DNA of 64,000 nt from a virus (IMGVR_UViG_3300038443_002533:32001-96000); one strand, 5' to 3'. Shown: positions 1,338 through 63,326, numbered from the stretch's first letter. Notes: a model not told the origin generated them from the letters alone. Numbers and translations are program-made.

Positions 1338-1376
1338 CATAGGCTCCTGCTACCCGTTGGGGTAGCAGGAGTTATG
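1338..1376. terminator. Bidirectional hairpin between convergent genes, with CATA/TATG feet
   Basis: CTCCTGCTACCC-GTTG-GGGTAGCAGGAG flanked by GGCATA and TTATG. Confidence 0.75.
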
Positions 1377-1782
1377 TCCATGTGGGTTTGGGGTGGGACG
1401 ACAGACGTTGATCCAGCAAATCCAAATAGGCCATCACTTGGGCTTGCCGAATCTCGCTGTTAAAACTGCGGGTGCTCACCAAAGAAGGGAGTTCGAGATC
1501 CAACTCACACGCTTTCCGTAAAGACAACGGGGCGTCGTTGGTGACCACCGAAAACACTTTGTAGGTGAACAACCAGCGGTCTGGGATATACCAATGCTTG
1601 TACTGTACCCGGTATGTTTTCCGGTGACAGTAAATCGCGATCTCATACCCTTGGATCGTGAATCCTTTCAAACACCCTAAGGCTTGATCGGATTCCCGAA
1701 TCTCGGTCACCCAGCGTGGGCCACGTACTCGCTCAAAAGCCAGTAGCACCAAACCTACCACTGTCCGCCAAGCGTATTTCAT
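1372..1782 (-). CDS. Hypothetical protein
   Basis: 136-aa ORF directly downstream of the 1808..3031 gene, ending in the hairpin. Confidence 0.55.
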   Translation of the reverse strand: MKYAWRTVVGLVLLAFERVRGPRWVTEIRESDQALGCLKGFTIQGYEIAIYCHRKTYRVQYKHWYIPDRWLFTYKVFSVVTNDAPLSLRKACELDLELPSLVSTRSFNSEIRQAQVMAYLDLLDQRLSSHPKPTWT

Positions 1783-1807
1783 GGTCGCCTCTCTCGCGGG
1801 TCATGTT

Positions 1808-3031
1808 TTAAGCGCCAGCATAATGCCGCTTGGCGAGACTACGCAGTACGATGTAAAGCAGCACCCCGGTGCGAATCGGTGGCAGCAGACTCACGTTGCG
1901 GGTACCGGTGGCATCCTTCACCAGTTGCTCGGTGTGTTGGCGGATATCCATCAACACGGGATCGGTCGAGCGGGCGGCGGTGTACACCCCACGCAGACGC
2001 GCCATCAGGCCCGGCAGGTCATGCGGGTTCTTGAGCGAATCGGTGTTGTGGGCCAGGTAATCGAAGCAGTGCACCATGATTTCCTGCACCAAGGCTTGGA
2101 GGCGATGCGCTTGATTGCCTTGGAAGTTATCCGACAGCCATTCGAGCGTACCGCGGAACAGATGCGGCGGCATGGTTTGCACCATCCCTTCCACCACGCT
2201 CAAGAGTTCTTCACGCATGAACGACGACTTGTCCGGAATCACCGATTGGATATACCGGGTGTAGTTCGCCAAAGACTTGGTCTTGTCCTTGAGGATCTCT
2301 TTGCCGTCATGCTCCACCGTTTGCGAGACCGCGATGATGCGTTTGCCCGACGCGTTGATCTGGTAGTGCACCCCAGCGATGAGCTTGAGTGTTTTCCGCA
2401 GACGCGTTTGGATATCGTTGACGATCTTTTCGATCTCGCGATCGTCACCCATCTTTTTGAATTGCTGAAAGCGTGGGGTGTGCGGATCCAGAATGTCTTC
2501 GGCACGTTTACGCAAGTACGCTCCCCAGCTTCCCTCTTGCTTCAAGTCGAACTTCATCGACAGTGATGCATAAGTGGCTTCCGCCACAGCTTTGTCGGCG
2601 GGGTAAACGAAGTGGCGATACAAACGGCTGGTCAGGAACTTGTACTGCATCACGAGGATCACCGAGATCATTGCATCGTGGCGCAATTGCTCGGGGATGT
2701 CGGCGTTGATCAGCAGATGCGTGAGCCAGATGCACGACAGGTTCATCGCGTCGGAGGCGACTTGGTGATCCCGGTGCACAGTTGGCAGTTTGAACAGGGC
2801 TTCTTGCAGCGTGTGTTCATCCACATGCAAGATTTCATCGAACCACACCAGGCGATCGGCGTCCGTGAAGCGCACGATTTGCACACCGGTTAAGTGCCCC
2901 CCAAAGAACTTGACGTGTTCGTCATTCTTCGCAGCAAACGCCAAGGCATACGTGATGACCTTTTTAGCGAGGATTGCGTCGGCAACAACATCAGGACACT
3001 GTTGCTCGAACACATTTCGGATTAGTAACAT
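1808..3031 (-). CDS. Conserved phiKZ-like protein, probably virion-associated
   Basis: Long ORF with phage-like codon usage; start reassigned to ATG 3031 (MLLIRN) behind an AAGGA RBS. Confidence 0.6.
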   Translation of the reverse strand: MLLIRNVFEQQCPDVVADAILAKKVITYALAFAAKNDEHVKFFGGHLTGVQIVRFTDADRLVWFDEILHVDEHTLQEALFKLPTVHRDHQVASDAMNLSCIWLTHLLINADIPEQLRHDAMISVILVMQYKFLTSRLYRHFVYPADKAVAEATYASLSMKFDLKQEGSWGAYLRKRAEDILDPHTPRFQQFKKMGDDREIEKIVNDIQTRLRKTLKLIAGVHYQINASGKRIIAVSQTVEHDGKEILKDKTKSLANYTRYIQSVIPDKSSFMREELLSVVEGMVQTMPPHLFRGTLEWLSDNFQGNQAHRLQALVQEIMVHCFDYLAHNTDSLKNPHDLPGLMARLRGVYTAARSTDPVLMDIRQHTEQLVKDATGTRNVSLLPPIRTGVLLYIVLRSLAKRHYAGA

Positions 3032-3087
3032 GAAAATTCCTTTGGATAAAGGTTTACACAAGATGAGGCCTTGCGGGCTTATCCAAG

Positions 3088-3120
3088 CGGCATAAAACCT
3101 CGCTGGGGTTTCCAGCGAGG
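3088..3120 (-). terminator. Hairpin followed by TTTTATGCC on the minus strand
   Basis: CCTCGCTGG-GGTTT-CCAGCGAGG, just downstream of the 3137..3823 gene. Confidence 0.65.
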
Positions 3121-3136
3121 CAGGGAAGAAAAGCGA

Positions 3137-4609: not shown

Positions 4610-4651
4610 CTGGCTCACCCTGCCGACCTTAATGGTCGGTGGGGTTATGCC
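4610..4651 (+). terminator. Hairpin + TTATGCC (near-identical copy at 56619)
   Basis: ACCCTGCCGACC-TTAAT-GGTCGGTGGGGT then TATGCC. Confidence 0.7.
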
Positions 4652-13967: not shown

Positions 13968-14011
13968 ATAGCTAACCCTCCCTACCCGCGAGGGTAGGGA
14001 GGGCGCTATGC
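13968..14011. terminator. Bidirectional hairpin at a convergent junction
   Basis: CCCTCCCTACCC-GCGA-GGGTAGGGAGGG with ATAGC and GCTATGC feet. Confidence 0.75.
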
Positions 14012-14025
14012 GCTTTCTTTTTTGG

Positions 14026-19055: not shown

Positions 19056-19090
19056 CCACCTCGTTTCGGCATTAATTTACCCATCACCGT

Positions 19091-43184: not shown

Positions 43185-43192
43185 TCGTTAAC

Positions 43193-43627: not shown

Positions 43628-43645
43628 TTCTCACCTCGTATGCAT

Positions 43646-43669: not shown

Positions 43670-43730
43670 TAAATAGTAGGCCACTCGCCTCATAAGTAAC
43701 AAAAACATTATCCATTAACAAAGGATACGT

Positions 43731-45938: not shown

Positions 45939-45988
45939 TTAACCCGCCTACCCCGCCCCCTCGGGGTAGGTTTCACTTTGATTAACAC

Positions 45989-48121: not shown

Positions 48122-49698
48122 CATTAGCCATTGTCGTTGCGGCCACGCATCATTTCGTGGTCAGCAACGCTTCCATGGGGATCCGGGTCGCGTGTCAAGA
48201 ATTCTCACGCGGCCTGACCCAATTTGCGCGGACCTTTACCCGCAACGGACGAACGATCAAAAGTGGTGAGGACAAGCATTACGATGCCGCGACCGAGTCG
48301 CGTAATCGGGTTCGTTACCACATCAACCATCTGGAGGCTTTCAAGAAACTGTTATACCGGCATAACCTCGATGCCCCGGGGTTGATCCAATGGGAAACTG
48401 CCAAGCCGTATCTGGCCGACCACATGCACTTGGTGATCCGCTCCCATTTCATCCCAAGCGAACTGCAAGAAGAGGCCATCGCCTACATCTTGAGCGAAGA
48501 CAGCCCGACCACCAAAGCAGTGATCCTGCAAGCGGGTGGCGGCAAGACATTGCTGACGATGATGGCGGCGGCCAAGTACCGGCAACGCATGTGCATCATG
48601 CTGGAGCCGAAGTACATCGACCAGTGGCTCAAGGCGTTTGACGAAAACTGTATCATCGATAAGAAGCGGATCTGTGTGATCGGTGGTGACGTGAAAGGCG
48701 GCACCACCAACGCTCTGCGCTCGTTGCTAGAGATGGCAGAAGACGGCGGGCACATCCCGTACGATGTCATCATTGTCAGCACCGTGACATTCCGCGGGTA
48801 TATCGAAGCTTACGAAGCCTGCGGAAACGCGACCAAGTTGAAAGAAGAACATGGGTTCGTAGTCCCGCCCTATTTGTTTTTTCAACATTTGCGCATTGGC
48901 TTTCGCGTGATCGACGAAGTGCACGAGAACTTCAACCTGATGTTCCGGCTCGATTGCTATACCCACGTCAACAACGCAGTGTCGCTGTCAGCGACCTTGC
49001 AAAGTGACGACGCTTTTATCAACAACATGATGCGGATTGCGTATCCTCCGCACCAGCGCTTCGATAAAGGCGGGTTCAACAAGTACGTGCAAGCGTATTC
49101 GTTGCACTACAGCGTACGGCGGCCGCAAACGATCCGGACCTTGCAAAAGGGCATGGCGGCGTACTCGCACGTGGAGTTTGAAAAGAGCCTCATGAAGTCG
49201 AAGGAAATGCTGAATGCTTATTTCCAGATGACGCGCGATAGCTTGATCTACACGTACGACTTGGATTACCGCCAGGGCGATCGGTGTCTGGTGTATTTTG
49301 CCACCATCGAAATGTGCACGCTGTTCACCGAGTATATCGAGAAGCATTACAAACACCTCGATGTACGGCGGTTTGTCGGGGAAGATCCGTTTGAGAACCT
49401 GGTCACGGCCGATATCATTGTGTCGACTTTGAAGTCCGCCGGCACCGGTAAGGATATTCCCCAACTCACCACGGTCATCATGACCCCAGCGGTGAACAGT
49501 TCCCCCACGAACATCCAAGGCTTCGGGCGTCTGCGGGATTTGAATCGTAAAGATCCAAGTCTGGGGCGCAAGATGTACTTTGTGTATTTCGTGGGCGACG
49601 ACTTCGCCAAGCATCACGAGTACCATCAACGTAAGAAAGAGTTGTTGGCCACTCGCGCCTTGAAGTACGAGCCGCGTTACTACGGCACCATGATCTAA
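48118..49698 (+). CDS. SF2 (UvsW/DExH-like) helicase (phiKZ gp75-like)
   Basis: QAGGGKT, VIDEVH, SAT and QGFGRLR motifs. Confidence 0.88.
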   Translation: MTLAIVVAATHHFVVSNASMGIRVACQEFSRGLTQFARTFTRNGRTIKSGEDKHYDAATESRNRVRYHINHLEAFKKLLYRHNLDAPGLIQWETAKPYLADHMHLVIRSHFIPSELQEEAIAYILSEDSPTTKAVILQAGGGKTLLTMMAAAKYRQRMCIMLEPKYIDQWLKAFDENCIIDKKRICVIGGDVKGGTTNALRSLLEMAEDGGHIPYDVIIVSTVTFRGYIEAYEACGNATKLKEEHGFVVPPYLFFQHLRIGFRVIDEVHENFNLMFRLDCYTHVNNAVSLSATLQSDDAFINNMMRIAYPPHQRFDKGGFNKYVQAYSLHYSVRRPQTIRTLQKGMAAYSHVEFEKSLMKSKEMLNAYFQMTRDSLIYTYDLDYRQGDRCLVYFATIEMCTLFTEYIEKHYKHLDVRRFVGEDPFENLVTADIIVSTLKSAGTGKDIPQLTTVIMTPAVNSSPTNIQGFGRLRDLNRKDPSLGRKMYFVYFVGDDFAKHHEYHQRKKELLATRALKYEPRYYGTMI

Positions 49699-49699
49699 C

Positions 49700-49730
49700 A
49701 GGGAGACACCTTCGGGTGTCTCTCTATGCT
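49700..49730 (+). terminator. UUCG hairpin + TATGC
   Basis: GGGAGACACC-TTCG-GGTGTCTCTC then TATGCT. Confidence 0.75.
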
Positions 49731-49795
49731 GTGTAGGTTTTTATGGCTGTTCACGCGATTATTTATACATACAAGTATCCTAGAGGTGTGGTGGT

Positions 49796-50248
49796 ATGGC
49801 GCTTATTCAAACAACTCCAAAGCAATCCGGCACGGAAGGGCTACTGAAGATTTTACAAGTCATCACCGACGGCATTAAGCTGATGCAAGGCAATGTGTTG
49901 GTGGGACAATTCGCAGCGCGTAATGCGTTGTTCACCAAGTTGAGTTTATACCTGACCGACAACACCCATGACGCGATGGGAGAACGCAACGTCTTCATTC
50001 AAGATGTCCGCGGTCAAGTGTTGGTGGCGATCGGGCGTAACTGGTTGGACCGGTTTCCCTCCAATCAATGTCGCTCGTACCCCTTGACCAAGCTCGACCA
50101 AGCGGCCATGGACATTCGTGACTATTTGTTGTTTGGCCAACTGTTCGATCACGCACCCCGCTCTAACGATCTGTTGATTACCGCCTCCCGAATGGATGGC
50201 AAATATGCAGTCTTTGATATCCTCGCCACTTTCACGCCCACCGACTGA
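49796..50248 (+). CDS. Hypothetical protein
   Basis: 150 aa; GAGG RBS; ends at a hairpin. Confidence 0.6.
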   Translation: MALIQTTPKQSGTEGLLKILQVITDGIKLMQGNVLVGQFAARNALFTKLSLYLTDNTHDAMGERNVFIQDVRGQVLVAIGRNWLDRFPSNQCRSYPLTKLDQAAMDIRDYLLFGQLFDHAPRSNDLLITASRMDGKYAVFDILATFTPTD

Positions 50249-50250
50249 GC

Positions 50251-50299
50251 GCATAGCCTCCCTACCCTTGCGGGTAGGGAGGGCGTATGCTGTCTTTTT
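50251..50299. terminator. Bidirectional hairpin with GCATAG / GTATGC feet
   Basis: CCTCCCTACCC-TTGC-GGGTAGGGAGG; same stem as at 13968. Confidence 0.8.
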
Positions 50300-50311
50300 T
50301 TCTTTGGTTTG

Positions 50312-50761
50312 TTACGAGCAATAAATCGTGATATTCATGCTCGACTCTTTCAGGAGTTCTTGCAGAACCGGTTTTACATCCCGATAGAAGTCCAGTCCTC
50401 CTTTACCACAACCCAACGCCGGTATCGCGACCGACTCGACCTGTGTCTGTTCACACCACGCGATGAACTTGAGTAAACCATCACGCACAATTGCCGTGGA
50501 AGAATCTTCCCACCAACGGCGCTTGGTGTGTAAACAATACACGGTGAAATCTTTCGTGGGAAATACAAACGGAACCATCTGTGCCGGTTCATGCTTCGCA
50601 CAGTGGCGACGGTAAGCGCTGAACAGTCCCGCTACCCGGTTACGAAAATAACGGGCCAAGCCATTGCCCATCACACCGGCAGCGTTGGTGGGACACACCA
50701 ACACCGCGGCGCCACTGGTGAACAAGTCACCCTTTTCGATATATCGGATTCCCACGGTCAT
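50312..50761 (-). CDS. Stand-alone macrodomain (Poa1p/DarG-like ADP-ribose-processing protein)
   Basis: GDLF, VCPTNAAGVMGNGLA, LHTK and IPALGCGKGGL motifs. Confidence 0.88.
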   Translation of the reverse strand: MTVGIRYIEKGDLFTSGAAVLVCPTNAAGVMGNGLARYFRNRVAGLFSAYRRHCAKHEPAQMVPFVFPTKDFTVYCLHTKRRWWEDSSTAIVRDGLLKFIAWCEQTQVESVAIPALGCGKGGLDFYRDVKPVLQELLKESSMNITIYCS

Positions 50762-51192
50762 CCTCCCCTTGTGCCCAGTTGACGTGCCAATGCTTCGGCT
50801 TCTTTCAGAGTATTGTCCGCTGCGCTATTTTTTAGCTTACGGCGTCGCTCTGCGACACGTCGGATCATTTGCATCTCATGGCGCGGGAGCGTGATGTAAT
50901 ACTCCCAGGTCATGTATTCAAAGATCTCTAGGTCCAGGAAATGCTCGAAGTGCTCCTCCAATTGGGTGCCCAAATAAGGATCTTCAGCATCGCGCATCTT
51001 ACACAACGACGCGGGGTTATGGTCTAACTCGGCTTCGGTGGCTAACCCGTAGCGCAGCAAGTACGCACGGTGCAGCAACAACGAAGCTTCGACAGCCGAT
51101 AACTTGCCAGGACGCGCTAGATACGGTTGGAGGGTCGCGATAAAGAATTCCACCATCCGGGTCGGTTCCTCGTTGAACTCGGCGCCGAACAT
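50758..51192 (-). CDS. Conserved phiKZ-like protein (gp76-like position)
   Basis: 144 aa, coupled to its neighbours. Confidence 0.6.
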   Translation of the reverse strand: MFGAEFNEEPTRMVEFFIATLQPYLARPGKLSAVEASLLLHRAYLLRYGLATEAELDHNPASLCKMRDAEDPYLGTQLEEHFEHFLDLEIFEYMTWEYYITLPRHEMQMIRRVAERRRKLKNSAADNTLKEAEALARQLGTRGG

Positions 51193-51218
51193 CGGATGGA
51201 GGACATGGCTGATGACGT

Positions 51219-52853
51219 CTAAGGACGCTGTTGGATTTGCTGGGTCTTTTGGTAAAGGAGGTTGGTAAAAACCGAGACCGGATCGAGCGGGATGATGTTC
51301 TCGAACCGCGGCTTGACTTGGTCGGCTTCTTCCGGATGGACTTGCGGCACGCCGATCAACGCGACCACGGCATCGTTGATGTAACCTTGCACCGTCTCGT
51401 AATACTTGGCACGGGTGGCATCGTCACCCGACAGACTGCTGATCGTATTTTCGATGGTGGTCACATCGCGGATCGCCTGATCCTTACCTTGTTGCTTCGG
51501 ATCGGGCAGGTCGATCGATTCGATCCAGTGCACGTACTGGCGCATCGAGGTGGCCTTGGCGCGGTCGAAGATCATGTCGTTGCGTTGCTTTTCCGACAGG
51601 TCTTGGGTGAAGGCTTGGTTGACCGCGAAGACCAGTTCGTCGACCCAGCGCTGACCAGCGTTCAGGTACTCGTCCACGGTCGGCACACGCATGGTGACAC
51701 CGACCTTGGCGTTGAGCATGATCGACTTGGGTTTACCACGGGTGAAATGCTCGCGGTAAATCTTCAGCGATTCCGGACTCATCGATGCTGTGCGACGCTG
51801 ACTCATGTGCTTGATTTGCCAGTCGTTCAAGCTGCTGCTGTCCACACGCAGGCAGGTGCCGACGTTGAGCAGTTCTTGCACGACTTTGCTCTGGGTGCCG
51901 TTGGCGTCGAGCAGGGCCCGTTTGAACTGGAAGCCACGCGGGTACAGGGCGCACGCCAGACCCCACGCGATGATCGGGATATCCAGCGCACTGATGTTAG
52001 CACGGATGACTTCGACGGTATTGAAACCGTTGACCGACGTCTCGTACAGATTGCGCATGGCCAGATCGAACACTGCGCCTTGGCTGACCACGGTGTGGTT
52101 GGCGAATGCCAGGCCGTTGCTGGAGCGACCGAACACGATCTTGTTTTCGCTGATGGTTTGCAGCGTGTCGAGCAGATCGATCTCGCCCGGCTTTTTCAGG
52201 GTGAGCCAGAACCCGGAATGCCAGAGCGGAATCGACATGATCGAACCACGTCCCATCAGCGCATTGACGCGCAGCATCGCACGTTCGCCCGTCAGGAGCG
52301 GGCCGTTGTCTTCACCCAGACGTGGCTCCGCGATTGAGAGCGGACGCTGGGCGTCGGACATGATCTGTTGTTGCCACTGGGCGCCTTCGCGCTTGGTGGC
52401 CGCCAGCAGGCTGTCGTGGAACGAACCATTGTCCAGACCTTCGGAAATGGTGTCTGCCCATTCGATACCTTTGTCAGTGGTGACCAGGTCTTGGCCGTGG
52501 GGGTTGGTGGCACCGTAATTCATGGTGCGCGCCCCCGTGTCGGGCGGCAGCGCGATGATGGTCGCCAGGTCATCCCACTTGTCTTCCGCGATCGGCGTGA
52601 AGTATTCCTTGTCGGTGGTGGCGTTGTTCAGGGGCGTCGGTGCCGGCCACGTGAACTTGTCATCCACGTCCGCGCTATCGGTCGGTGCAGCGGTAGCGGG
52701 TGTGGTTTCCGCGACAGGTTCCGCCGATGCTGCCGGGGTGTCGACGGGATCCGGGGTGGCCACTTGGGTCGTATCCGTGATCGAAGTGGCGCCGACGGCT
52801 TCGTCGATTTGTTCGATACCGCTATCGGGCGGCGTATTGGTGATGTCGGTCAT
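51219..52853 (-). CDS. Conserved phiKZ gp77-like protein
   Basis: 544 aa; T/P/D-rich N-terminus; synteny. Confidence 0.65.
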   Translation of the reverse strand: MTDITNTPPDSGIEQIDEAVGATSITDTTQVATPDPVDTPAASAEPVAETTPATAAPTDSADVDDKFTWPAPTPLNNATTDKEYFTPIAEDKWDDLATIIALPPDTGARTMNYGATNPHGQDLVTTDKGIEWADTISEGLDNGSFHDSLLAATKREGAQWQQQIMSDAQRPLSIAEPRLGEDNGPLLTGERAMLRVNALMGRGSIMSIPLWHSGFWLTLKKPGEIDLLDTLQTISENKIVFGRSSNGLAFANHTVVSQGAVFDLAMRNLYETSVNGFNTVEVIRANISALDIPIIAWGLACALYPRGFQFKRALLDANGTQSKVVQELLNVGTCLRVDSSSLNDWQIKHMSQRRTASMSPESLKIYREHFTRGKPKSIMLNAKVGVTMRVPTVDEYLNAGQRWVDELVFAVNQAFTQDLSEKQRNDMIFDRAKATSMRQYVHWIESIDLPDPKQQGKDQAIRDVTTIENTISSLSGDDATRAKYYETVQGYINDAVVALIGVPQVHPEEADQVKPRFENIIPLDPVSVFTNLLYQKTQQIQQRP

Positions 52854-52859
52854 GGCGGT

Positions 52860-53447
52860 TTAAACGTTGATGGCCGGTTGTTCGTACGGATTGGCGGCCG
52901 CGATAGCGGTCTCGGTCACCGGGGCTTCTGCCGGCACTTGGGCCAGCGGTTGTTGATCCAGCGCGTTGGCGGTCGCGAGCGCTTGCGCGTGCGCGGCTTG
53001 CTTGGCGGCGACGGCGCGATTCAGGTGGTCGTCGAGTTCCAGCATCATCGGCAGCAGGACTTGCTGGTGCACGCCCATGAACACCATGTAATTCTGTTGG
53101 ATCTGCATGGTGTGGAAATACTCGTCTTCGTCCTCCGGATTGCCGTAGCCGGTCTTGCCTTCGTGCAGCTTCTTGTTGGCGGCCACCTTGTCCATCAGAT
53201 CGCCGAGGTCGACGTCGAGACCGCGCATCAGCAGATTGACGCGCTCGATGTCGGCATAGAACGGGATGATTTCTTTGTTCGTGAGCAGTTCCACCAGGTT
53301 GCGGTATTGCTCGAACAAGCTCATCTGGTTACGATGCATGACGTTGAGGGAATCGTAGATCCCTTCGATCCCTTGGTGTTTGGCCTCGGCCTTTACTTGC
53401 GCTTTCGCGGCGTCGCGTTGTACGCGCCCTTGACTTTTCTTGGTCAT
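52860..53447 (-). CDS. Conserved phiKZ-like helical protein
   Basis: 195 aa, upstream of the gp77-like gene. Confidence 0.65.
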   Translation of the reverse strand: MTKKSQGRVQRDAAKAQVKAEAKHQGIEGIYDSLNVMHRNQMSLFEQYRNLVELLTNKEIIPFYADIERVNLLMRGLDVDLGDLMDKVAANKKLHEGKTGYGNPEDEDEYFHTMQIQQNYMVFMGVHQQVLLPMMLELDDHLNRAVAAKQAAHAQALATANALDQQPLAQVPAEAPVTETAIAAANPYEQPAINV

Positions 53448-53657
53448 GTCCCTAGCTCCGAAACTTCATGTGTAATAAACTGCCATGAAAGACACTATGT
53501 CTTTCGCATAAAAGCCTTGATTTAAGGCAACTGTCAGACCATGGCAACAGATAAATATTTTTTTACATTAATGAAACACGCGAATGTGTGTCAGAGAATG
53601 GGTGCGCGATCCTCATCATTTGACCCCGCTTTTCCCTTTCTTACAAGGTGAACCATT

Positions 53658-54497
53658 ATGCTAGATTTGTTAAGTGACTTTCTCGCGAGCCAGACCTCGG
53701 CCGAAGAGAAAGCCATGTTGCAAGCTGCGGACGACGTTTTGCAGCGTGCTGAGATTGAATACGAACACATCCTTGAAGAAATCCTGATGACCGCGGAAGA
53801 GCTGGATTCGGGTGCCCCGCTTCTGGAGATTCGGAATGTGTACCAACGTGGTTTGAATTATCTGCTGGCCTTGCATGCCGTGACGTTGGTAGACGCGGCC
53901 ACGCTACCGCAAAAGACTGAGATCGTGGCTGGTTTGCTGACGATCGACAATACCGAAAACCCCCAGCAGTTCTTCAAGATCGCCGATGAAGAAATGCGCG
54001 CGAACGAAAAGCTCGCCGAGATCTTGTCGCGGGTGATGACGTGGTCGGCTGATCAACTGCTGCAACTGATCGATGACGTCTCGGACACGTTCTTCCTGCG
54101 TCTCAAAGACAGCCATCGGGCTGAGCTGGAACAAGAGGACGACGGGGAATTGCATGAACGCCGGGAACGGATTCACGCTTACCGTCTGTTCGAGATATAT
54201 CTGCAAGCGCTGGGGGCGAACATCATCCAAGTGCCGAGCCTGCTCGCCCAAGGGATTCAACCGGGGATGACGTATGAACTCTACGCCAAGCTCATCGATG
54301 GCCGTCAGCCGATCCTCACCATGCCGGGCTACCAAATCGCCCGTGAGTTGTTCGCAGCAGCGTTGATCTCGCGCGACGGCTATGGGAATCCCGGTGAAAC
54401 TGTCAAGGCCAGCCTAGAACAATTCATCCCGGACTTGAAACTGATCTCGGACACCATGATCGAAGTCCGGCAACTCATGACGGGATACGCCAAATGA
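53658..54497 (+). CDS. Conserved phiKZ gp79-like protein
   Basis: 279 aa; AAGGTG RBS; ATGA-coupled to the vRNAP subunit. Confidence 0.65.
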   Translation: MLDLLSDFLASQTSAEEKAMLQAADDVLQRAEIEYEHILEEILMTAEELDSGAPLLEIRNVYQRGLNYLLALHAVTLVDAATLPQKTEIVAGLLTIDNTENPQQFFKIADEEMRANEKLAEILSRVMTWSADQLLQLIDDVSDTFFLRLKDSHRAELEQEDDGELHERRERIHAYRLFEIYLQALGANIIQVPSLLAQGIQPGMTYELYAKLIDGRQPILTMPGYQIARELFAAALISRDGYGNPGETVKASLEQFIPDLKLISDTMIEVRQLMTGYAK

Positions 54498-55825
54498 AAC
54501 GTGAAGACTTTTTCCTAGCCGCGATGCGGGCGGAAATGTATCGCCACAAGAACTGGGTGATCAGTGCATTCGCCGTCATCCAAGAAGGCCCAGACGCCTA
54601 CAAGGCGGATCCTTACGCCTACCGCATCGTCCAACAACCTACCGGGGTGTTCTTCGTCGATCCCGAGAACCCGGGTACCCTGGTCCCGCTGGAAGACACC
54701 CAAGTCGGACAACCGCCGTTTAATAAGGCGGACAAGCTCCGCCTGAAGGCCGGCGATTTGCCGAACGTCTTGAATGATCTGGAAACCAGCTACGGCAACG
54801 TGTTGGCCAATGGGATTTTGCTGGTCTACCCCTTCAAGGACAAGATCCCGTTTATCCAAGGCCGGATGAAACCGGACAAGATCGAAGACTTGATCCTGCC
54901 GCGCCTGCAAGATGATCCGGCCCCGGGTCAAGCCATGACCGCCAGTGGCCGTGCGGCGCCGATCTACGTGCAGGAATACCTGAAGTTCGCCAACGCCATG
55001 ACGTATATCTCGGGCTTTGCGAACCTGTGGGTGACTGCGGGTACCGAGAAAGCGCTGCTGCCGCCACCGGGACTGAAGGAATTTAAAGCGGCGCTGTTTA
55101 AGAAGTACAACATCGACCCGAACAATCCGAATGTCGACCCCGGTGTGGTCGCACAGATCGCCAAAGAACTGCGCGAGTTGGATAAGGAGTGGCTGAAGGA
55201 TGACGACACGCTCAACTTTCTGATCAAGTCCAAGTCGTTCGAGGTGGTGCGTGCCAAGAAGTTCTTGATGGTCGGTGCTGAAGCCGGTCTGGGCGATGGC
55301 CAAGACATGGAACTGGTGCCGAACTCGTTGGATGAAGGTTGGGACATCAACAAGCTCCCGGCTATGGTGAACAACCTGCGCGCCGGTTCGTTTAACCGTG
55401 GCGCTGAAACCATGCGCGGCGGTGAAGCAGTGAAGTGGTTGCAACGCGCTTCGTCCAACATCAACATCCTGCCCGGGGATTGCGGTACCAAACTCGGTAA
55501 GGTGCTGACGCTGACACCGGAGCTGCGTAAGAAGTATCTGAACTTCAGTGCACTGGTCGATGGTAATACCACGGTGCGGCTGACGGAAGAGGTGATTGAC
55601 CAGTACATGGGTAAGAAGCTCATGATGCGCTCACCGATGTATTGCATTCACCCGCACACCGACTACTGCGCGACGTGCGTCGGTCCACGACTGGAAGAGA
55701 ACCCCACGGGGTCGTCCTCCGCGATTGCTGACTTTGGTTCGACCATTATGCTGATGTTCATGAAAGCGAACCACGGTAAAGCACTGCTGTTGAACAAATA
55801 CGACTACAAATTGCGTATTCTCTGA
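54494..55825 (+). CDS. Virion RNAP beta-prime C-terminal subunit (phiKZ gp80-like)
   Basis: GSFNRGAETMRGGE, DCGT and RSPMYC...CATCVG zinc ligands. Confidence 0.88.
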   Translation: MKREDFFLAAMRAEMYRHKNWVISAFAVIQEGPDAYKADPYAYRIVQQPTGVFFVDPENPGTLVPLEDTQVGQPPFNKADKLRLKAGDLPNVLNDLETSYGNVLANGILLVYPFKDKIPFIQGRMKPDKIEDLILPRLQDDPAPGQAMTASGRAAPIYVQEYLKFANAMTYISGFANLWVTAGTEKALLPPPGLKEFKAALFKKYNIDPNNPNVDPGVVAQIAKELRELDKEWLKDDDTLNFLIKSKSFEVVRAKKFLMVGAEAGLGDGQDMELVPNSLDEGWDINKLPAMVNNLRAGSFNRGAETMRGGEAVKWLQRASSNINILPGDCGTKLGKVLTLTPELRKKYLNFSALVDGNTTVRLTEEVIDQYMGKKLMMRSPMYCIHPHTDYCATCVGPRLEENPTGSSSAIADFGSTIMLMFMKANHGKALLLNKYDYKLRIL

Positions 55826-55849
55826 ACCTATTTCAAGATGGAGTAATGT

Positions 55850-56617
55850 ATGGGCAGCAAGTCCAAAAATCGCCAACAAGCCAAAAAGGAAACCAACATG
55901 CAACCGAATCCGTACGAAGACGTGCAACCGATCGTCAGCCCGGCCACGAACGCACCGGGCGACAACGCGGCCGGCGATGCCGGTGACACCAGCGAACCGA
56001 AAGGTGACGGCGCCGAAGGCGTCGAAGGCGTCGAAGGCAACAAGCCGGCCGATACGAGCACGGACGCTGTTGCTGAACAACCGGCTGAACCTGTCGCCGA
56101 AGCAGCACCTGCACCTGCGCCAGTCGAGATCCCGGTCGGCTTCGCCAAAGCCCTGCCGGTGCTGGACGATCCGTATCAACTGCCGCTGTCCTGTGCGCCG
56201 GCTTCGCAGATCGTGATCCAGGAACTGAAGGACTACATCGCCGCGATGTCGGCCAAGATCCGCATGCCGAACGACCAAGGCGGCCAGATCCAGATGAACC
56301 TGTATCACACCCTGATGCAGATCATCAACACCCGCCCCGAAGACTTCGACGCCGTGTTCAGCCTGGCTATGAAACTCATCCACGACAACCTGAAAGGGGT
56401 GTTCAGCGACGAGAACATGCACCGCTATACGCCACACGTCTCGATGCCGTCGAAACTGATGGCGCACTTCCGCTACCTGCTGTCGGCCCTGACCGCCCTG
56501 GCAGCGCCGCAGACGCGTCAACTCGCCCTGCGCCAAGTCAACCTGGCACAAGCGTTCCAGCATCCGCGTATCAAGGAAGACGCACGCCAACGCGTGTTCA
56601 ACTACTTCAACGTGTAA
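55850..56617 (+). CDS. gp81-like protein, paralogue A
   Basis: Acidic disordered N-terminus plus a C-terminal helical domain shared with the next gene. Confidence 0.7.
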   Translation: MGSKSKNRQQAKKETNMQPNPYEDVQPIVSPATNAPGDNAAGDAGDTSEPKGDGAEGVEGVEGNKPADTSTDAVAEQPAEPVAEAAPAPAPVEIPVGFAKALPVLDDPYQLPLSCAPASQIVIQELKDYIAAMSAKIRMPNDQGGQIQMNLYHTLMQIINTRPEDFDAVFSLAMKLIHDNLKGVFSDENMHRYTPHVSMPSKLMAHFRYLLSALTALAAPQTRQLALRQVNLAQAFQHPRIKEDARQRVFNYFNV

Positions 56618-56618
56618 T

Positions 56619-56659
56619 CTGGCCAACCCTGCCGACCTTCGGGTCGGTGGGGTTATGCC
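56619..56659 (+). terminator. Hairpin + TTATGCC (near-identical to 4610)
   Basis: ACCCTGCCGACC-TTCG-GGTCGGTGGGGT then TATGCC. Confidence 0.7.
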
Positions 56660-56758
56660 GTTATTAATTTGGCTAAAATAAAATTTACTTGGATATCCTT
56701 TGAGCCCATGGAGAGGCCGCTCATCCACCATATTCCACAACCCTCAAAAGGAAGTAAC

Positions 56759-58042
56759 ATGAGTGACGAAAACCAAACCCCGGTGTCCGAGACGCCGACC
56801 GACAACACGCCTGCTGCTGAAGACACCACCCCGGCCACCGCCGACACGACCACCCAAGACGCTGCCCCGGCAACGGACAGCACTGCTGCTCCCGAAACCA
56901 CCGACACCGCTCCGGCCCCGGCCGAACAACCGACGGCTGACGCGGCCCCAGCAGCTGAAGAACCGGCCGCCGATCCGGCGCCGACCACGACCGAAGATGC
57001 TCCGGAACCCACGGACGAACAGCACGACGCTCCGGCAGAAGCACCTGTCGTCGCTGAAACCCCGGTGGCTGAATCGGAACCGGCCGCCGAGACGAATGCT
57101 CCCGATGCTGCGCCCGTCGACGTCGTGACCGACACCCCGGTCACCGAAGAAGCCGCTCCTTCCGCCGAACCGGAAGCTGCTCCCGCTGTCGAAGTGGCAA
57201 CGGAACCTGCACCGGTCGAAGTGGCTGACGCTGCACCCCAAGTTGACCCGGCTCCGGTCGAAGTTGCCCCCACGGCAGACGTCCCCGCAGCACCGGCCGA
57301 TGCAGTGGCCAACACTCCAGTGGTCGCTGATCCGGCCCCCGCGCCGGTCGTCGATACCCCGGTCACCCCGGCACCTGCTCCCGAAGCTGAACAGCCTGCT
57401 CCGGCCGTCGATACCCCGGCTGAGCCGGCACCTGTCGTGGAAACCCCCGTCGAAACCACGCCGGTGGCTGACCCGGTACCCGTGACCGATACGCCTGCGG
57501 CACCGGTGGTGGAAGCACCCGCTCCTGTCGAAACCCCTGCTCCGGTCGAAGCTCCGGTGGCAACGCCTGTCGTCGATGCTCCTGTCCCGACGCCGGCACC
57601 GGCCGCCGATGCACCGCTGTCGCCGGCCAACAACATCAGCATCATCGAACTGAACGACTACGTGACGTTCATGAACACGCCGGTCCCGCCGACGGCCGAA
57701 GAAGGTGGTCAATACCAGGCCAGCCTGTACGCGACGCTGCTGCAAGTGCTGCACGCCGAAGAAGCGGAATTCGACGCCGTGTTCGGTGCGATGCTGCGTG
57801 TCCTGCACAAGCACAGCAACCACGTGTTCAACAGCATCAACCTGCATCGTTTCACGCCGCACTCGAACCTGGGTCAAGCCGAATCGACGCACATGACGCA
57901 TCTGCTGTCGGCTCTGGTGGATCTGGCCGATCCGGCTACGCGCGAAGCGAAGAAGCAGTTCGTCAACCTGGAACTGGCGCTGCACGCACAGCACGTGAAA
58001 GAGTTCGCCAAGCAACGCGTGCTGAAGTTCTTCAACCTGTAA
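56759..58042 (+). CDS. gp81-like protein, paralogue B, with about 290 aa of P/A/E/T/V low-complexity N-terminus
   Basis: AAGGAAG RBS before ATG 56759; ELNDY...GGQYQASLY...FDAVF...QRVLKFF aligns with paralogue A. Confidence 0.8.
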   Translation: MSDENQTPVSETPTDNTPAAEDTTPATADTTTQDAAPATDSTAAPETTDTAPAPAEQPTADAAPAAEEPAADPAPTTTEDAPEPTDEQHDAPAEAPVVAETPVAESEPAAETNAPDAAPVDVVTDTPVTEEAAPSAEPEAAPAVEVATEPAPVEVADAAPQVDPAPVEVAPTADVPAAPADAVANTPVVADPAPAPVVDTPVTPAPAPEAEQPAPAVDTPAEPAPVVETPVETTPVADPVPVTDTPAAPVVEAPAPVETPAPVEAPVATPVVDAPVPTPAPAADAPLSPANNISIIELNDYVTFMNTPVPPTAEEGGQYQASLYATLLQVLHAEEAEFDAVFGAMLRVLHKHSNHVFNSINLHRFTPHSNLGQAESTHMTHLLSALVDLADPATREAKKQFVNLELALHAQHVKEFAKQRVLKFFNL

Positions 58043-58053
58043 TCGCCTGACGT

Positions 58054-58100
58054 CATAAACCCCCTCCCTCTACCCCGCTAAGGGTAGAGGGAGGTGTGCC
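58054..58100. terminator. Bidirectional hairpin at a convergent junction
   Basis: CCTCCCTCTACCC-CGCTAA-GGGTAGAGGGAGG with a CATA foot. Confidence 0.75.
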
Positions 58101-58103
58101 GTC

Positions 58104-59906
58104 TTAAGCGGCGAGTCGCTGGTATGAAGTCAGCACTTGATGCTCAGGAATGGTCGGCTGGTTCGGTTGGGTTTTCCGCAAGTACGCGGCGTACATCTGG
58201 TCCAAACGCGGCATCTTAAACAAATCATGTCCCACTTCCAGGGCGTTGACATGACCTCCTGCCAAATTAAAACCAATACGTCGTCGGATGTGGTCAGGAA
58301 TCCCTTCGATATAAAGCAACTCACGGTGGCAAGTGTATTTCGAAATGTTCATGCAGATACCCTCGTTCGGATAGGTACCAGCAATGTCCAAGTCACCCAC
58401 GCCAATGCGAATGTTCGAAGGCACATTGCGCATCTCTTCCAAACACTTCAGACCGTTGTCCATACACAAGTGTGCAGGCAACATCGTGATCCAACCTTTA
58501 CCGATCACGGTGCGATCGTCATTGGCATCTCGCATCGTATCCGAGGTCGAAGACAACACCCGATTCTGCGACAACAAGTCAAAGAAGAACTTGTTGCACA
58601 GCTTCTTCGGCTGTGATGGAAAGATCGCGTAATCAGACGGGCCCGAATACAGCGGGAAGTTCAGGTTCAGGTCACCGGTCTTTTCATCGAGCATCTCCAT
58701 ACCCACGCAGTCAAACACGTTATAGATCACGTATTCGAATTTGTAGAACTCTTGCATGAAGCGGTGCCAATCCCCTTCGATGAACCCATCGGCTTCGCTG
58801 AACTTGAGCTTACCACGCTTGATGTGTTTATCCATCAACGCATCGAGCTTATAGCTGGGTTCTTCTTGTTGGCCTTGACGGATCTGCCGGTAGGCGCACA
58901 TCGCATCGATAAAGTAGAACGACGCTGGTGTGGTGACCACGTGCCACTGTTCGTGAAAGCCCAGCGGTTTATGCACGCCCGATGCTGTCTCTTTGGACGA
59001 AGGGCCGATCTTGAAATTGAAGTGTTTATAATCGTCCGGCAAGGTCGGATGGGAAAACACCATGGCGGGGTCGATCCTGTCCGCTTTCAAGGCTTGGAGC
59101 ATTTTCTCCATGTCGAACTTGATGTTCCAGATCGCCAAGAAGTCAGGGCCCCATTGATGAGCTTTGTCGATAACGGCAGTGACGACCTGGCCTGCGGTAT
59201 CGACCAACTTGATTTCCCAATTGATGCCCCGCGCTTTAGCGACATCACCGAGATGATACGCAAAGCATTCCTGCAAGCGTTCTTCGATGTTGATGTGTTT
59301 CCCAAAGAAGCTGCGCTTAATCGCCGTGAAGACCCGATCCTTCATCGAGATCGTCTGCATGATGATCTCTTGCTCAGCGGAGAACATATTCGTTTCCGTG
59401 TCGGTACAGGCCACCGTGGATTTCGAATTGAGATGCGGGAACAAGTCCATGTACGCCTTTTTCAAGAGCGTGGTGGACGTGACATCGGTGCCGTACAGGT
59501 ACGGGCTACGCGACAGCTTACGTAAGCTATCACGGTCACCCGGCCAAGGCAGACCAAACCGTTTGATCGCTTTGTCCGTCTTTTCGCGCAGCTTACGCCG
59601 CACTTGCTGTTCCAATTCCGACTGGGTGCACGTTACTTCATCCAGATCGTCCATCTCCGCGAATTCGCGCTTTTCTTTGTGATTCTGTCGTCCCGTCTTC
59701 TCGATGTAAAACTTGCGTTTGAAATCTTTCCGGGTCACGACATTGGGGATGTGAATGACGCGTTCACCGTCGCGCACATGGGTCACACGCTTGATCAAAT
59801 GCAAGTCCGGCAGGCCTGGTTCGGGCGGCGGACAATACACGACGTGGCGGCATTCATGCCCAATGATGGCGTCGTTTGGAAAGTCCTTCAGTTTGTGTGA
59901 TAGCAT
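58104..59906 (-). CDS. Family-B DNA polymerase N-terminal half: 3-prime-5-prime exonuclease plus motif A (phiKZ gp82-like)
   Basis: ExoI DTET, ExoII WNIKFD, ExoIII YNVFD and motif A DIAGTYP. Confidence 0.85.
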   Translation of the reverse strand: MLSHKLKDFPNDAIIGHECRHVVYCPPPEPGLPDLHLIKRVTHVRDGERVIHIPNVVTRKDFKRKFYIEKTGRQNHKEKREFAEMDDLDEVTCTQSELEQQVRRKLREKTDKAIKRFGLPWPGDRDSLRKLSRSPYLYGTDVTSTTLLKKAYMDLFPHLNSKSTVACTDTETNMFSAEQEIIMQTISMKDRVFTAIKRSFFGKHINIEERLQECFAYHLGDVAKARGINWEIKLVDTAGQVVTAVIDKAHQWGPDFLAIWNIKFDMEKMLQALKADRIDPAMVFSHPTLPDDYKHFNFKIGPSSKETASGVHKPLGFHEQWHVVTTPASFYFIDAMCAYRQIRQGQQEEPSYKLDALMDKHIKRGKLKFSEADGFIEGDWHRFMQEFYKFEYVIYNVFDCVGMEMLDEKTGDLNLNFPLYSGPSDYAIFPSQPKKLCNKFFFDLLSQNRVLSSTSDTMRDANDDRTVIGKGWITMLPAHLCMDNGLKCLEEMRNVPSNIRIGVGDLDIAGTYPNEGICMNISKYTCHRELLYIEGIPDHIRRRIGFNLAGGHVNALEVGHDLFKMPRLDQMYAAYLRKTQPNQPTIPEHQVLTSYQRLAA

Positions 59907-61365: not shown

Positions 61366-61387
61366 TTCAACTACAAGGATCTTCCCC

Positions 61388-61900
61388 ATGAATCCCAAAT
61401 TCTTCGGCCTGAATGAAGCCATCGGCAAACTGATCAAGAACCCGGGCGACCAAAGCCGCATCGTGGCGATCGCCGTGGCCCTGGCCGTCTCCAGCCAAGC
61501 ACAACTGCCGTCGTCATCGGTCGACAACCAACTGGCGTATTACGGCGAGCAAGTCCACCCGTTCGTCTGCGAGAAGATTTCGGAAGTCGGCGAAGCCGTC
61601 GTGTTCGCCTCCAAGTCGGCACTCGAATACGCCCAGCTGTTCTGGAAGATGCGCTACACCGCGGCATTCCCGAATCACATGCTGGTCGACAACGCCCACC
61701 AGATCGACCGCCTGATCGCCACCCGTGGCGGGCATTCGCTCGACATCACCTCGCTCTGGTCCGGCGGCCTAATCCAGCTCTCGGAAGAGATGTCGCAGTT
61801 CATGAACAAATACCGTGCCGAAATCATGGGCGTGGCGTCGCGCGTCGCAGTGCTCCTGCAACCGGCAGCGAGTGGCAGCGATGAGCCGGTGGCGGGGTAA
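61388..61900 (+). CDS. Putative virion protein
   Basis: 170 aa; AAGGA RBS; structural-gene block. Confidence 0.6.
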   Translation: MNPKFFGLNEAIGKLIKNPGDQSRIVAIAVALAVSSQAQLPSSSVDNQLAYYGEQVHPFVCEKISEVGEAVVFASKSALEYAQLFWKMRYTAAFPNHMLVDNAHQIDRLIATRGGHSLDITSLWSGGLIQLSEEMSQFMNKYRAEIMGVASRVAVLLQPAASGSDEPVAG

Positions 61901-61902
61901 CC

Positions 61903-63273
61903 ATGGCTGAGATCAATGCCACTACCACCCTCGCCCAAGCGCACATCCAAGCGATCGATCAAGCAGCCCCGACGGATGAAAGTCTGAATGCGGGCGCTCT
62001 GTTGCCGGATGAACCCACGCCGGACGTCTTGACCACGACGGTGTATGCCGACGCCGAGTCGGTCATGAAGATGCTGCCGGCGCTGCAACAACCCAGCGAA
62101 GTCGCTACCGAATCGCACAGCAACGCCCTGCGTTATCTGCGCGACGATCTGCTGACCCAGCGCGGCATGAACCAGCGCATCGCTAACGAAGCCATGGCGA
62201 TCCTGCCCAACTTCGGCCAAGGGCGTCCGCTGAACTACTACAGTCGCCATCCGAGCGCTACGGGCTACCAGATGGCCCTGGAAGAGATCGACGCCGGGTT
62301 GGAGCAAGATCTGATCGGCCGCCTCAGCAGCGCTGCCATGCAGCTGGAAAACGCGGTCGGCACGCCTGGCATCGTGCAAGTCTTGGAAACGCTCGACTTC
62401 AAGCGTCGTGCTGACCAAGTCTCGATGCAAGCGAGTATCCTGAAAGACTTCATCGGTCTGGCGGTCGAGTACGGTTTCACCTGGGACGATGCTTGCTTCC
62501 AAGGCTGCGCGGTGGATCCCAGCCAGAACGCAGTGGTGCCGGAGATTCTGAAGACCGAGAAGAAGTGGGTGAATTCGCTGGCCAGCATGGATGAGTATTA
62601 TAAAGTCCACCAAGATGCACCGGCCATGATGGAACTCATGACGACCCATCTGAATCAATGGAAGCTGAGTTTTCTGTTCGCCCTGGAAGCGTTGAAAGAC
62701 GACGCCGATGCGATCAAGCCGGAACTGCCCAAGGCCCCGACCGTCTACTTTAACTTCGGTAGCAAAACCACGTCGATCGAGAATATCGCCGACGTGTTCA
62801 CGGCTGCGGAAGAAAAGGCCCAAGAACCGACCGAGACCCGTACCACGTATGACTGGCTGCATTCGGTCGGCAACGCGGCAGAACAAGCCAAGGTCGATGA
62901 CATCATCAACCGGGCCCGTTCGTACGTGAAAGTCGCCAACGAAGTCGCCGGCCTCTTGAAAGAGATCGCTACCCAGTTGACCGACGCGGCCAATACCAAC
63001 GCCGGTGCGGTGAAGGATCTGGAACAGATGGTGACGGCCTTCACCAAAACCGTGGAAGGCACCAACCAAGGCTTCTACCAAATCGTGCGCTGGTGCGTCT
63101 CGGCTGGCATGACCACGTCTTACGTCGGGGTGCTGGCGTATAGCGTGATCGAGCATGCCTGGAAGTCGCTGAACCAATGTCGTGAGACACTGCAAATGCC
63201 GCAAGCGGCTTACGATGCGCTCGCCACCATGGTGACCGACATCCAAGCCCCGGTCAAAACCAACACGCTGTAA
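61903..63273 (+). CDS. Putative internal head protein
   Basis: 456 aa; ATE and ALE sites in an acidic N-terminal region. Confidence 0.6.
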   Translation: MAEINATTTLAQAHIQAIDQAAPTDESLNAGALLPDEPTPDVLTTTVYADAESVMKMLPALQQPSEVATESHSNALRYLRDDLLTQRGMNQRIANEAMAILPNFGQGRPLNYYSRHPSATGYQMALEEIDAGLEQDLIGRLSSAAMQLENAVGTPGIVQVLETLDFKRRADQVSMQASILKDFIGLAVEYGFTWDDACFQGCAVDPSQNAVVPEILKTEKKWVNSLASMDEYYKVHQDAPAMMELMTTHLNQWKLSFLFALEALKDDADAIKPELPKAPTVYFNFGSKTTSIENIADVFTAAEEKAQEPTETRTTYDWLHSVGNAAEQAKVDDIINRARSYVKVANEVAGLLKEIATQLTDAANTNAGAVKDLEQMVTAFTKTVEGTNQGFYQIVRWCVSAGMTTSYVGVLAYSVIEHAWKSLNQCRETLQMPQAAYDALATMVTDIQAPVKTNTL

Positions 63274-63282
63274 TTACGACGT

Positions 63283-63326
63283 GCATAGACTCCCGCCCCC
63301 TCACGGGGAGCGGGAGCTATGATGTC
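63283..63326. terminator. Bidirectional hairpin with GCATAG / CTATG feet
   Basis: CTCCCGCCCCC-TCAC-GGGGAGCGGGAG at a convergent junction. Confidence 0.75.

Follow-up and report, generated by a model that had tools for sequence, protein, structure and literature searches.

The 64,000-nucleotide window analysed here (IMGVR_UViG_3300038443_002533:32001-96000) comprises bases 32001-96000 of a single viral contig of 272,470 bp with 54.8% GC, and its intergenic regions carry a family of GC-rich hairpins followed, just past the stem, by the word TATG, which we refer to as the foot. A PHROG scan of 39 window open reading frames (ORFs) places a PhuZ tubulin at 17406-18449 and a nuclear shell protein at 28473-30482, along with four split RNA polymerase (RNAP) subunit genes and split DNA polymerases. 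Because PhuZ, the shell protein and split RNAP subunits are all encoded, the phage can be assigned to the phiKZ-like, nucleus-forming jumbo phages. Nearest to it, among the matches listed for its gp71-73-like subunit, is Burkholderia phage FLC9 (41.5% amino-acid identity), with phiKZ-type phages at ~31%. An earlier reading of the sequence (the original prediction) had proposed that the hairpins and their feet form a terminator family oriented with transcription; the analysis below indicates that this is very probably so, and that the family is one already in print for relatives of this phage.

To establish the anatomy of the elements, we read the 14 places that had been listed, folded both strands of each, and rescanned each strand of the window separately, admitting G-U pairs. 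Thirteen of the 14 are GC-rich stem-loops (-16 to -36 kcal/mol over the folded stretches of 53-77 nt) in which TATG starts -1 to +4 nt from the stem end on the strand or strands named. The remaining site, 19038, had been taken for a plus-strand member at a co-directional junction and was rejected, as the hairpin in the region 19030-19090 (+) is weak and AT-rich and has TATGCCG within the 5' arm itself; conversely, a member at 34228 had been overlooked. The usual foot word at the window sites is TATGCCGTC, and Rfam returned no family match at any of the terminator sites.

Refolding of the co-directional junctions bore out the claim that they carry TATG on one side only (3088 on minus; 4610, 23411, 38302, 49700 and 56619 on plus). 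The minus-strand element (3091-3121) lies between two minus-strand genes and consists of a hairpin at 3097-3121 with the foot TTTTATGCCGC, its TATG at 3094-3091 on that strand alone. On the plus strand, the putative terminator at 4617-4649 has a hairpin (4617-4645) with two G-U pairs, which can pair on the plus strand only, and the foot TATGCCC (4646-4649); the one at 23411-23458 combines a hairpin (23411-23436), the foot TATGCCG (23441-23444) and a T-run (23448-23458); and the one at 38302-38331 has a hairpin at 38302-38325 and the foot GCTATGCC, with TATG at 38328-38331. A further element (49700-49728, +) begins 1 nt past the stop codon of a helicase-like gene, with its hairpin at 49700-49725 and the foot TATGCTG at 49725-49728, and the last (56625-56657, +) again contains two G-U pairs, possible on the plus strand only, in a hairpin at 56625-56654 that is followed by TATGCCG (56654-56657). 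The overlooked member (34228-34284, +) has a hairpin of the CTACCC..GGGTAG type (34228-34261), TATG at 34269-34272 and a T-run at 34275-34284; the minus-strand gene call that covers it is probably wrong, and a plus-strand ORF (33590-34219) stops just upstream. At all six of the one-sided window sites, the strand that carries the foot folds better than its complement.

Convergent junctions were expected to carry feet on both strands, and at 1338, 43193, 50251 and 63283 they do. These putative two-way terminators are at 1338-1376, between convergent ORFs (hairpin 1344-1371; plus TATG 1373-1376; minus TATG 1341-1338, reading CCTATGCCGTC); at 43197-43256 (hairpin 43200-43235; plus TATGGGC 43239-43242 with a T-run at 43248-43256; minus TATGCCGTG 43200-43197); at 50252-50301 (hairpin 50257-50282; plus TATGCTGTC 50286-50289 with a T-run at 50295-50301; minus TATGCGC 50255-50252); and at 63284-63321 (hairpin 63290-63316; plus CTATGATGTC, TATG 63318-63321; minus CTATGCACGTC, TATG 63287-63284). 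In such two-sided forms, the interrupted palindrome is lengthened (GACGGCATA...TATGCCGTC), and in the folded structure one foot pairs with the other. The three convergent sites said to have one degenerate foot proved to be so. The element at 13976-14023 (predicted at 13968) reads on plus, with a hairpin at 13976-14003, the foot TATGCGC at 14007-14010 and a T-run at 14014-14023, and has only CTATTT on minus; the element at 25656-25691 (25653) reads on minus, with a hairpin at 25660-25691 (core 25664-25687) and the foot TATGCCGTC at 25659-25656, and shows GATG on its plus side; and the element at 58054-58096, also on minus, has a hairpin at 58061-58096 and the foot TTTATGACGTC (TATG 58057-58054), its plus side reading TGTGCCGTCT, in which G replaces A and the extension is retained.

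We next examined the association between hairpin and foot across the whole genome, scanning for stems of eight or more Watson-Crick pairs (five or more of them G-C) with no more than one mismatch and loops of 3-8 nt, and scoring a TATG that starts at -3 to +8 relative to the stem end. Using our own, crude gene calls, the 122 hairpins found divide into 57 intergenic ones and 65 inside called genes. TATG is present on 56 of the 114 intergenic hairpin flanks, compared with ~5% of flanks expected by chance from its intergenic frequency and with 3 of 130 flanks for hairpins within called genes; of all 4-mers past intergenic hairpins it is the most enriched (59 against 4.8 expected). The window alone gives the same picture, with TATG on 16 of the 76 flanks of 38 strong hairpins versus 1.3 expected. 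A chance origin of the foot is thereby excluded. The foot is also oriented with transcription, as had been claimed: when a reading-in gene is defined by a stop codon no more than 60 nt from the flank, 39 of 59 flanks with such a gene are footed, compared with 17 of 55 without one (Fisher p 2e-4). At junctions with a single reading-in gene, the foot occurs on that strand only in 11 cases, on the other only in one, on both in nine and on neither in 12, and at convergent hairpins it is two-sided in 7 of 13. The elements lie 1-25 nt downstream of stop codons.

Inspection of the stems shows on which molecule they act. Within one-footed stems, G-U pairs favour the foot strand by 20 to 7 in this phage and by 104 to 55 across seven phages (p 1e-4); because of this bias, and because the foot strand folds better, we conclude that the hairpin is functional as RNA of the foot strand. 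The 5' arm is richer in C than in G in 38 of the 57 intergenic hairpins, with 18 showing the reverse and one tie, compared with 30 versus 27 for hairpins inside genes. GNRA loops likewise favour the foot strand (33 to 8) and UUCG loops show no bias (26 to 23), in a tetraloop comparison whose 'one-footed' class is confounded in phiKZ and 201phi2-1 by TTATT feet.

The foot itself extends beyond four bases. TATG is most often offset by +2 from the stem, and the five positions that follow it in the 56 cases are dominated by C (36), C (32), G (32), T (36) and C (27), giving the consensus TATG-C-C-G-T-C. The original prediction that an adjacent U-tract is often missing stands for the immediate flank: counted over 8 nt from a point 0-2 nt past the stem, five or more T occur on only 9 of 59 footed flanks, and the mean is 3.1 T. 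It does not stand farther out, where a T-run (TTTCTTTTTT) lies 6-22 nt beyond the TATG in 19 of the 59 cases, compared with 3.2% of random places. Five of these runs are in the window, at 14014-14023, 23448-23458, 34275-34284, 43248-43256 and 50295-50301, and 14 more are elsewhere in the genome; they occur also at convergent junctions, where no gene follows, and lie beyond the 3' ends mapped in relatives. A standard scan for a hairpin plus T-run finds no excess in the window (28 vs 19.9, 23 vs 21.5 and 14 vs 20.1), and TTTG, though better suited as a U-tract, shows no enrichment past the hairpins of this genome (9 vs 12). The footed form accounts for 39 of the 59 reading-in flanks and is thus the main terminator type, with a U-tract alone on 8 of 59; the phage therefore has two types of terminator. 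Two gene-end hairpins in the window have no TATG, at 30505-30536 and 45947-45970 (+), and the terminator after the shell-protein gene is of the classical A-run, hairpin, T-run form.

Applying the same hairpin scan to nine more genomes besides this one confirmed that TATG is enriched downstream of hairpins in related phages, ranking first or second among 4-mers in 7 of 10 genomes. It is the top 4-mer in FLC9 (63 of 302 flanks, 4.4 expected), RSL2 (47 of 286, 6.0), Xanthomonas phage LucasX (119 of 438, 9.9) and Erwinia phage Rebecca (55 of 162, 4.9), and the second in phiKZ (82 of 230, 12.7) and 201phi2-1 (65 of 212, 8.0). The signal is weak in EL (16 of 196, 4.9 expected), Vibrio phage Aphrodite1 (12 of 140, 4.4) and the SPN3US-like SPFM16 (9 of 188, 4.4), and in PBS1 the foot is absent (7 of 122 flanks, 7.2 expected). 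The seven phages in which TATG ranks first or second span 37-56% GC, and the extension C-C-G-T recurs in all of them. Of the 12 single-base variants of TATG, TATT alone is also enriched in most of the seven, with TATA enriched in addition in phiKZ (44 vs 17) and 201phi2-1 (15 vs 6); the variant scan shows no enrichment of TTTG, TACG, TCTG, TGTG or CATG past hairpins. In the GC-rich phages, moreover, the bases before TATG are no longer T. Because TATG is kept without a U-tract and TTTG is not enriched, what has been conserved is the word TATG and not U-richness, which is the contribution of the present genome to the published picture.

That picture comes from two transcriptome studies. In phiKZ, most predicted intrinsic terminators share the motif 5'-BCCYCCCCHWWDGGGRRGGBYTTATKYYGT-3' (61 terminators), a stem-loop followed by a 5'-TTAT-3' region (Putzeys et al., 2024, PMC10914365). 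Motif A of 201phi2-1 (n = 59 terminators) is said to strongly resemble it, and the two-sided palindromic form corresponds to motif A/B of the same authors (Microb Biotechnol 2024, PMC11512511). As K stands for G or T, the published tail TTATKYYGT matches TATGCCGT of our phage. The elements agree further in having a GC stem-loop with a C-rich 5' arm and a G-rich 3' arm before (T)TAT(G/T)YYGT, in lying after genes, in having two-way copies between convergent genes, and in an upstream ..GGCATA partner (motif B) that lengthens the stem. Four features that mark a phiKZ-type terminator are present here, namely the stem-loop arms, TAT(G/T)-Y-Y-G-T near the stem, the position and strand at gene ends, and split multisubunit RNAPs. 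They differ in that the surroundings of the word are T-poor in this phage (g..TATGCcgTc) as opposed to ..TTATGtt.Ttt in the other two, and because the bases around TATG are not T-rich, the published reading of a 'U-rich tail' is inapplicable here.

To determine whether RNA ends or begins at the foot, we turned to the mapped transcripts of these relatives. For phiKZ, we used the 149 starts and the termination sites T001-T129 only, with coordinates from Supplementary Tables S3 and S4. A hairpin ends just upstream of 91 of the 129 termination sites, and 38 of those 91 have a TATG foot, with 3' ends that fall, relative to its G, at -1 (11), +1 (9), +2 (11), -3 (3) and +3 (1), plus three outliers. 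When hairpins are ignored, the G of a TATG is within 3 nt of 38 of the 129 sites, compared with 4.2 expected. Starting instead from our own hairpin scan, in which 94 of 288 phiKZ flanks are footed, a same-strand 3' end lies within 5 nt of the G at 34 of the 94 feet and a start at only one; as a control, the G of TATG sits at 0 to -3 for 49 of 66 late starts. The tables for 201phi2-1 are complete (132 ends with efficiencies, 67 starts) and give the same result: the G is within 3 nt of 46 of the 132 ends, in the register -3 (6), -1 (10), +1 (6) and +2 (24), and across 65 feet, a 3' end lies within 5 nt in 25 cases and a start in one. Terminators with TATG are the most efficient in 201phi2-1: the median termination efficiency is 0.981 with TATG compared with 0.875 without it (p 3e-11), and efficiencies of at least 0.99 are reached by 19 of 46 ends with TATG and by 2 of 86 without. 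Since 3' ends, and hardly any 5' ends, map at hairpin-adjacent TATG, the end mapping in both relatives favours termination, the opposite of the refuting outcome (5' ends at the TATG) named with the original prediction. By nearest upstream start, the TATG-footed ends of phiKZ divide into 2 early, 8 middle and 17 late, and the TTAT[T/A] ends into 5, 4 and 9, all small numbers.

Taken together, these observations make it highly probable that the hairpins are phage transcription terminators, belonging to the 'GC hairpin + (T)TATG-YYG-T' family of phiKZ-like nucleus-forming jumbo phages. The original prediction was therefore right in its terminator reading; because the motif had already been published for phiKZ and 201phi2-1, the element is not a novel one. 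In the phage studied here, termination at the motif would follow by analogy with the 3' ends of those two relatives. Several points weigh against this assignment. Among reading-in flanks, 12 of 59 have neither foot nor U-tract, and of the 55 flanks that lack a reading-in gene, 17 carry the foot, although crude gene calls may contribute to both figures. Efficiency and TATG in the 201phi2-1 comparison are confounded with hairpin strength. The end resolution of ONT-cappable-seq is ~2 nt according to its authors (PMC11512511), and the ends mapped in the relatives could reflect trimming rather than release. Finally, the metatranscriptome contigs that carry our phage, several of which span terminator sites, are assembled, such that ends and strands are invisible in them.

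If the assignment holds, the hairpin would act in the nascent RNA, the RNA 3' end would fall at or within ~2 nt of the G of TATG, about 4-8 nt past the stem, and TATG would take the place of the usual U-tract as the point of pausing and release; where genes converge, a single hairpin footed on both strands would stop transcription in both directions. Because of the 3'-end register seen in the relatives, the polymerase probably stops with its active site on TATG, and the word would be read in that state. Most mapped ends lie no farther than G+2, so that the finished RNA would lack both the conserved G-T-C and the distal T-run; these would then have to act on DNA that the enzyme has yet to reach, or on complexes that have read through. 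The reader of the word could be a pocket in a beta-like subunit of the phage enzyme or a pause generic to multisubunit RNAPs, and we regard these two as about equally likely.

The first of these possibilities, which we put forward tentatively, is that the non-virion RNAP (nvRNAP) reads non-template TATG during elongation through the late-start pocket of its GP123-like beta subunit, with the hairpin holding the enzyme at the G until release. In phiKZ, the late promoter is TATG with G as +1 (Yakunina 2015, PMC4666361), and a cryo-EM structure of the nvRNAP shows that the core beta-like GP123, not the sigma-like GP68, binds non-template T-3 A-2 T-1 G+1 base-specifically under the beta-lobe (IUCrJ 2026, PMC12809450). 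A core subunit travels with the elongating enzyme, and every non-template TATG therefore passes the pocket in the register of the 3' end. Consistent with this idea, the 3' ends of phiKZ and 201phi2-1 at -1, +1 and +2 of the G share their register with late starts; the foot is strict in its T, A and T and prefers G, TACG, TCTG, CATG and TTTG not being enriched; and TATG is retained in GC-rich phages despite the lost U-tract. The GP123 homologue of our phage (genome 219834-221528, outside the window) keeps 7 of 16 named pocket residues (S144, F151, H185, S330, H331, S334 and Q466) and changes four more conservatively (among them K158R, N186Q and Y406F), at 28% overall identity. A search with a profile of the 10 orthologues found no virion-RNAP paralogue of GP123. 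PBS1, a close relative of AR9, lacks the foot, and the late promoter of AR9 is AACA-N6-TA/G. Should all this hold, TATG might serve as both start and stop word in chimalliviruses, caught by the beta-lobe pocket once the hairpin has formed and making a sequence-specific, U-tract-independent terminator, a proposal that we advance with a little more reserve still.

Against a role of the pocket stands the finding that eight 201phi2-1 terminators, TATG types among them, work in uninfected P. chlororaphis, and the authors of the structure describe the pocket as 'incomplete in the transcribing complex' (PMC12809450). Operons behind 8 of 12 early-promoter-like motifs (described below) end at footed hairpins, and early genes of phiKZ are made by the virion RNAP. 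The foot accepts T for G and carries a conserved YYGT, neither of which is a feature of the promoter, and RNA ends rather than begins there. Within genes there is no strand-specific avoidance of TATG, which is depleted to 0.69 of expectation on the sense strand (385 vs 557) and the antisense strand (173 vs 249) alike, and F151, H331 and Q466 are retained also in phages without the foot. A separate count within 150 nt upstream of genes gave no late-promoter signal (79 sense TATG vs 78 antisense; shuffles 72.6 +/- 7.8). Across the GP123 homologues of 10 phages, the position of phiKZ Y406, a residue that stacks on T-3/A-2, holds Y or F wherever the foot is TATG (seven phages) and W, H and H in SPFM16, EL and Aphrodite1, whose foot is missing or is TTATT; drawn from so few genomes and confounded with phylogeny, this pattern carries no weight as evidence.

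In sigma-dependent promoter-proximal pausing, a promoter-like DNA word halts the elongating polymerase. The original prediction had invoked this process, an analogy that probably does not fit because in phiKZ the TATG pocket lies in GP123 and not in GP68 (PMC12809450). A limited full-text literature search found no link drawn between the terminator foot and the late-promoter TATG. The searched main texts of the two transcriptome papers (PMC10914365, PMC11512511) do not contain 'TATG', the motif standing in their supplementary sequences, and the main text of the structure paper contains neither 'terminat' nor 'pause' (PMC12809450).

The second possibility, likewise a tentative one, is hairpin-dependent termination of a kind open to any multisubunit RNAP, in which TAT|G supplies a weak U-A-U hybrid end and a pyrimidine(-1)/G(+1) pause. 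The 201phi2-1 terminators are functional with the host RNAP: eight of them, most of this type, terminate in uninfected P. chlororaphis, and four outperform lambda T0 (PMC11512511). In our phage, footed hairpins end putative early operons as well as others. In E. coli, a non-template G just past the active centre stimulates hairpin-dependent pausing via the 'CRE' pocket of the core enzyme (Petushkov 2015, PMC4499132), and consensus pauses have Y:R at i+1 and G:C downstream (Saba 2019, PMC6336406). In our elements, the G-rich 3' arm of the stem puts G upstream of the hybrid. The CRE pocket reads one G, whereas the phage pocket reads four bases, as known from an initiation complex alone. A generic pause, however, leaves the strict T-3 and A-2 unexplained, given that TACG, TCTG, TGTG, CATG and even the U-richer TTTG are not enriched, and GC-rich versions in this genome (such as GGAG-TATGCCGTC) have only ~3 T in the 8 nt after the stem.

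A processing signal is improbable as an explanation. A phage or host protein, such as a termination factor, a nuclease or a factor for export or stabilisation, would here recognise the hairpin together with UAUGYYGU, and the mapped 3' ends would be processing products; the conserved 8-9 nt word adjoining the hairpin does resemble a protein site, and 3' ends 2-8 nt past the stem are also compatible with trimming back to the hairpin. Most 3' ends, however, are at or before G+2, which leaves the conserved G-T-C and the T-run outside the finished RNA, and the 201phi2-1 terminators work between two reporter genes in uninfected cells (PMC11512511).

It is very unlikely that the TATG past the hairpin is instead the late promoter of the next gene, forming a terminator-promoter cassette. 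Late transcription in phiKZ does start at the G of TATG (PMC4666361), and at co-directional junctions the next gene lies 17-140 nt downstream; at the seven convergent window sites, however, promoters on both strands would fire antisense into both genes. A start at the foot G, which was tested in relatives only, was not found as a rule, since the sole start near a foot in each of phiKZ and 201phi2-1 is at a second, tandem CTATG a few bases downstream. This hairpin-TTATG-CTATG(T) arrangement occurs at 94330 and 145659 in phiKZ and at 99521 and 159086 in 201phi2-1 (record coordinates); in it, the late start maps at the second TATG, ~5-7 nt past the foot, and the identical foot word goes unused as a start.

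Least probable of all is a palindromic repeat family acting at the DNA level (REP-like, mobile, or a recombination or packaging site) and unrelated to transcription, for although similar CTACCC..GGGTAG stems recur at 13976, 25664, 50257 and 58061 and the flanking CATA..TATG prolongs the palindrome, one-sided feet track gene direction, G-U pairs favour the foot strand, the elements sit just past stop codons and are not equally frequent at divergent junctions and inside genes, and 3' ends map at them in phiKZ and 201phi2-1.

The terminator assignment invites comparison with better-known systems. Like a bacterial intrinsic terminator, the element has a nascent GC hairpin near the RNA 3' end, and its 201phi2-1 members stop the host RNAP; it differs in that 50 of 59 footed flanks here have no U-tract directly after the stem. 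The RNAP of T7 is a single-subunit enzyme, and its class II sequence-specific terminator needs no hairpin; the two systems have in common that a specific DNA word stops an elongating polymerase. Published work on how transcription by the non-canonical, two-barrel RNAPs of jumbo phages ends goes as far as naming a conserved motif and classing it with the intrinsic terminators. U-richness and TATG are entangled in the AT-rich phiKZ; in this genome and the GC-rich phages related to it the two come apart, and TATG alone is conserved. Together with the pocket structure (PMC12809450), that conservation leads to a precise question, the role of the pocket in termination. If TATG does prove to be a start-and-stop word, the GC-rich lineage (this phage, FLC9 and LucasX) would constitute a natural experiment in which the U-tract is dispensable. 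The motif is also of practical use, as a reliable mark of where operons end in chimallivirus genomes that lack annotation and on which standard scans for terminators fail.

DNA of the phage was found in one rhizosphere metagenome run and in root metatranscriptome runs, three of which contain 20-81% of a 10-kb stretch. Contigs from the root metatranscriptomes (X2-X4) match window 38201-58200 at 95-100%, with many differences of third-position type (for example, at 54197-54613). Among these contigs, one base is deleted from the loop of the 38302 hairpin, and the sequence from run X4 is dissimilar on either side of that hairpin. Related strains that differ at the 38302 terminator region are thus in circulation.

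Downstream of the shell-protein gene, an RNAP subunit gene (phrog_2987) is split across window 30639-33337 (+), with profile positions 17-418 at 30639-32039 and 424-475 at 33113-33337. The two parts are separated by an HNH endonuclease ORF (31943-32737) and by a group I intron (Rfam RF00028, 32718-33043, 91.4 bits), and a hairpin without a foot at 33024-33045 falls within the intron.

The early-promoter-like motif mentioned above, CTATATCAC, is preceded by A/T-rich sequence and followed by TAAAC. It has 13 hits genome-wide, all on the plus strand and 12 of them intergenic, and mostly lies 50-125 nt upstream of genes, including those for the shell protein and an RNAP subunit. From its resemblance to the phiKZ early promoter TATATTAC, it is likely to be the early (virion RNAP) promoter of this phage. 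In the window, it occurs at 4687, 28380, 38362 and 43662 (+), and the copies at 4687 and 38362 follow the terminators at 4617 and 38302.

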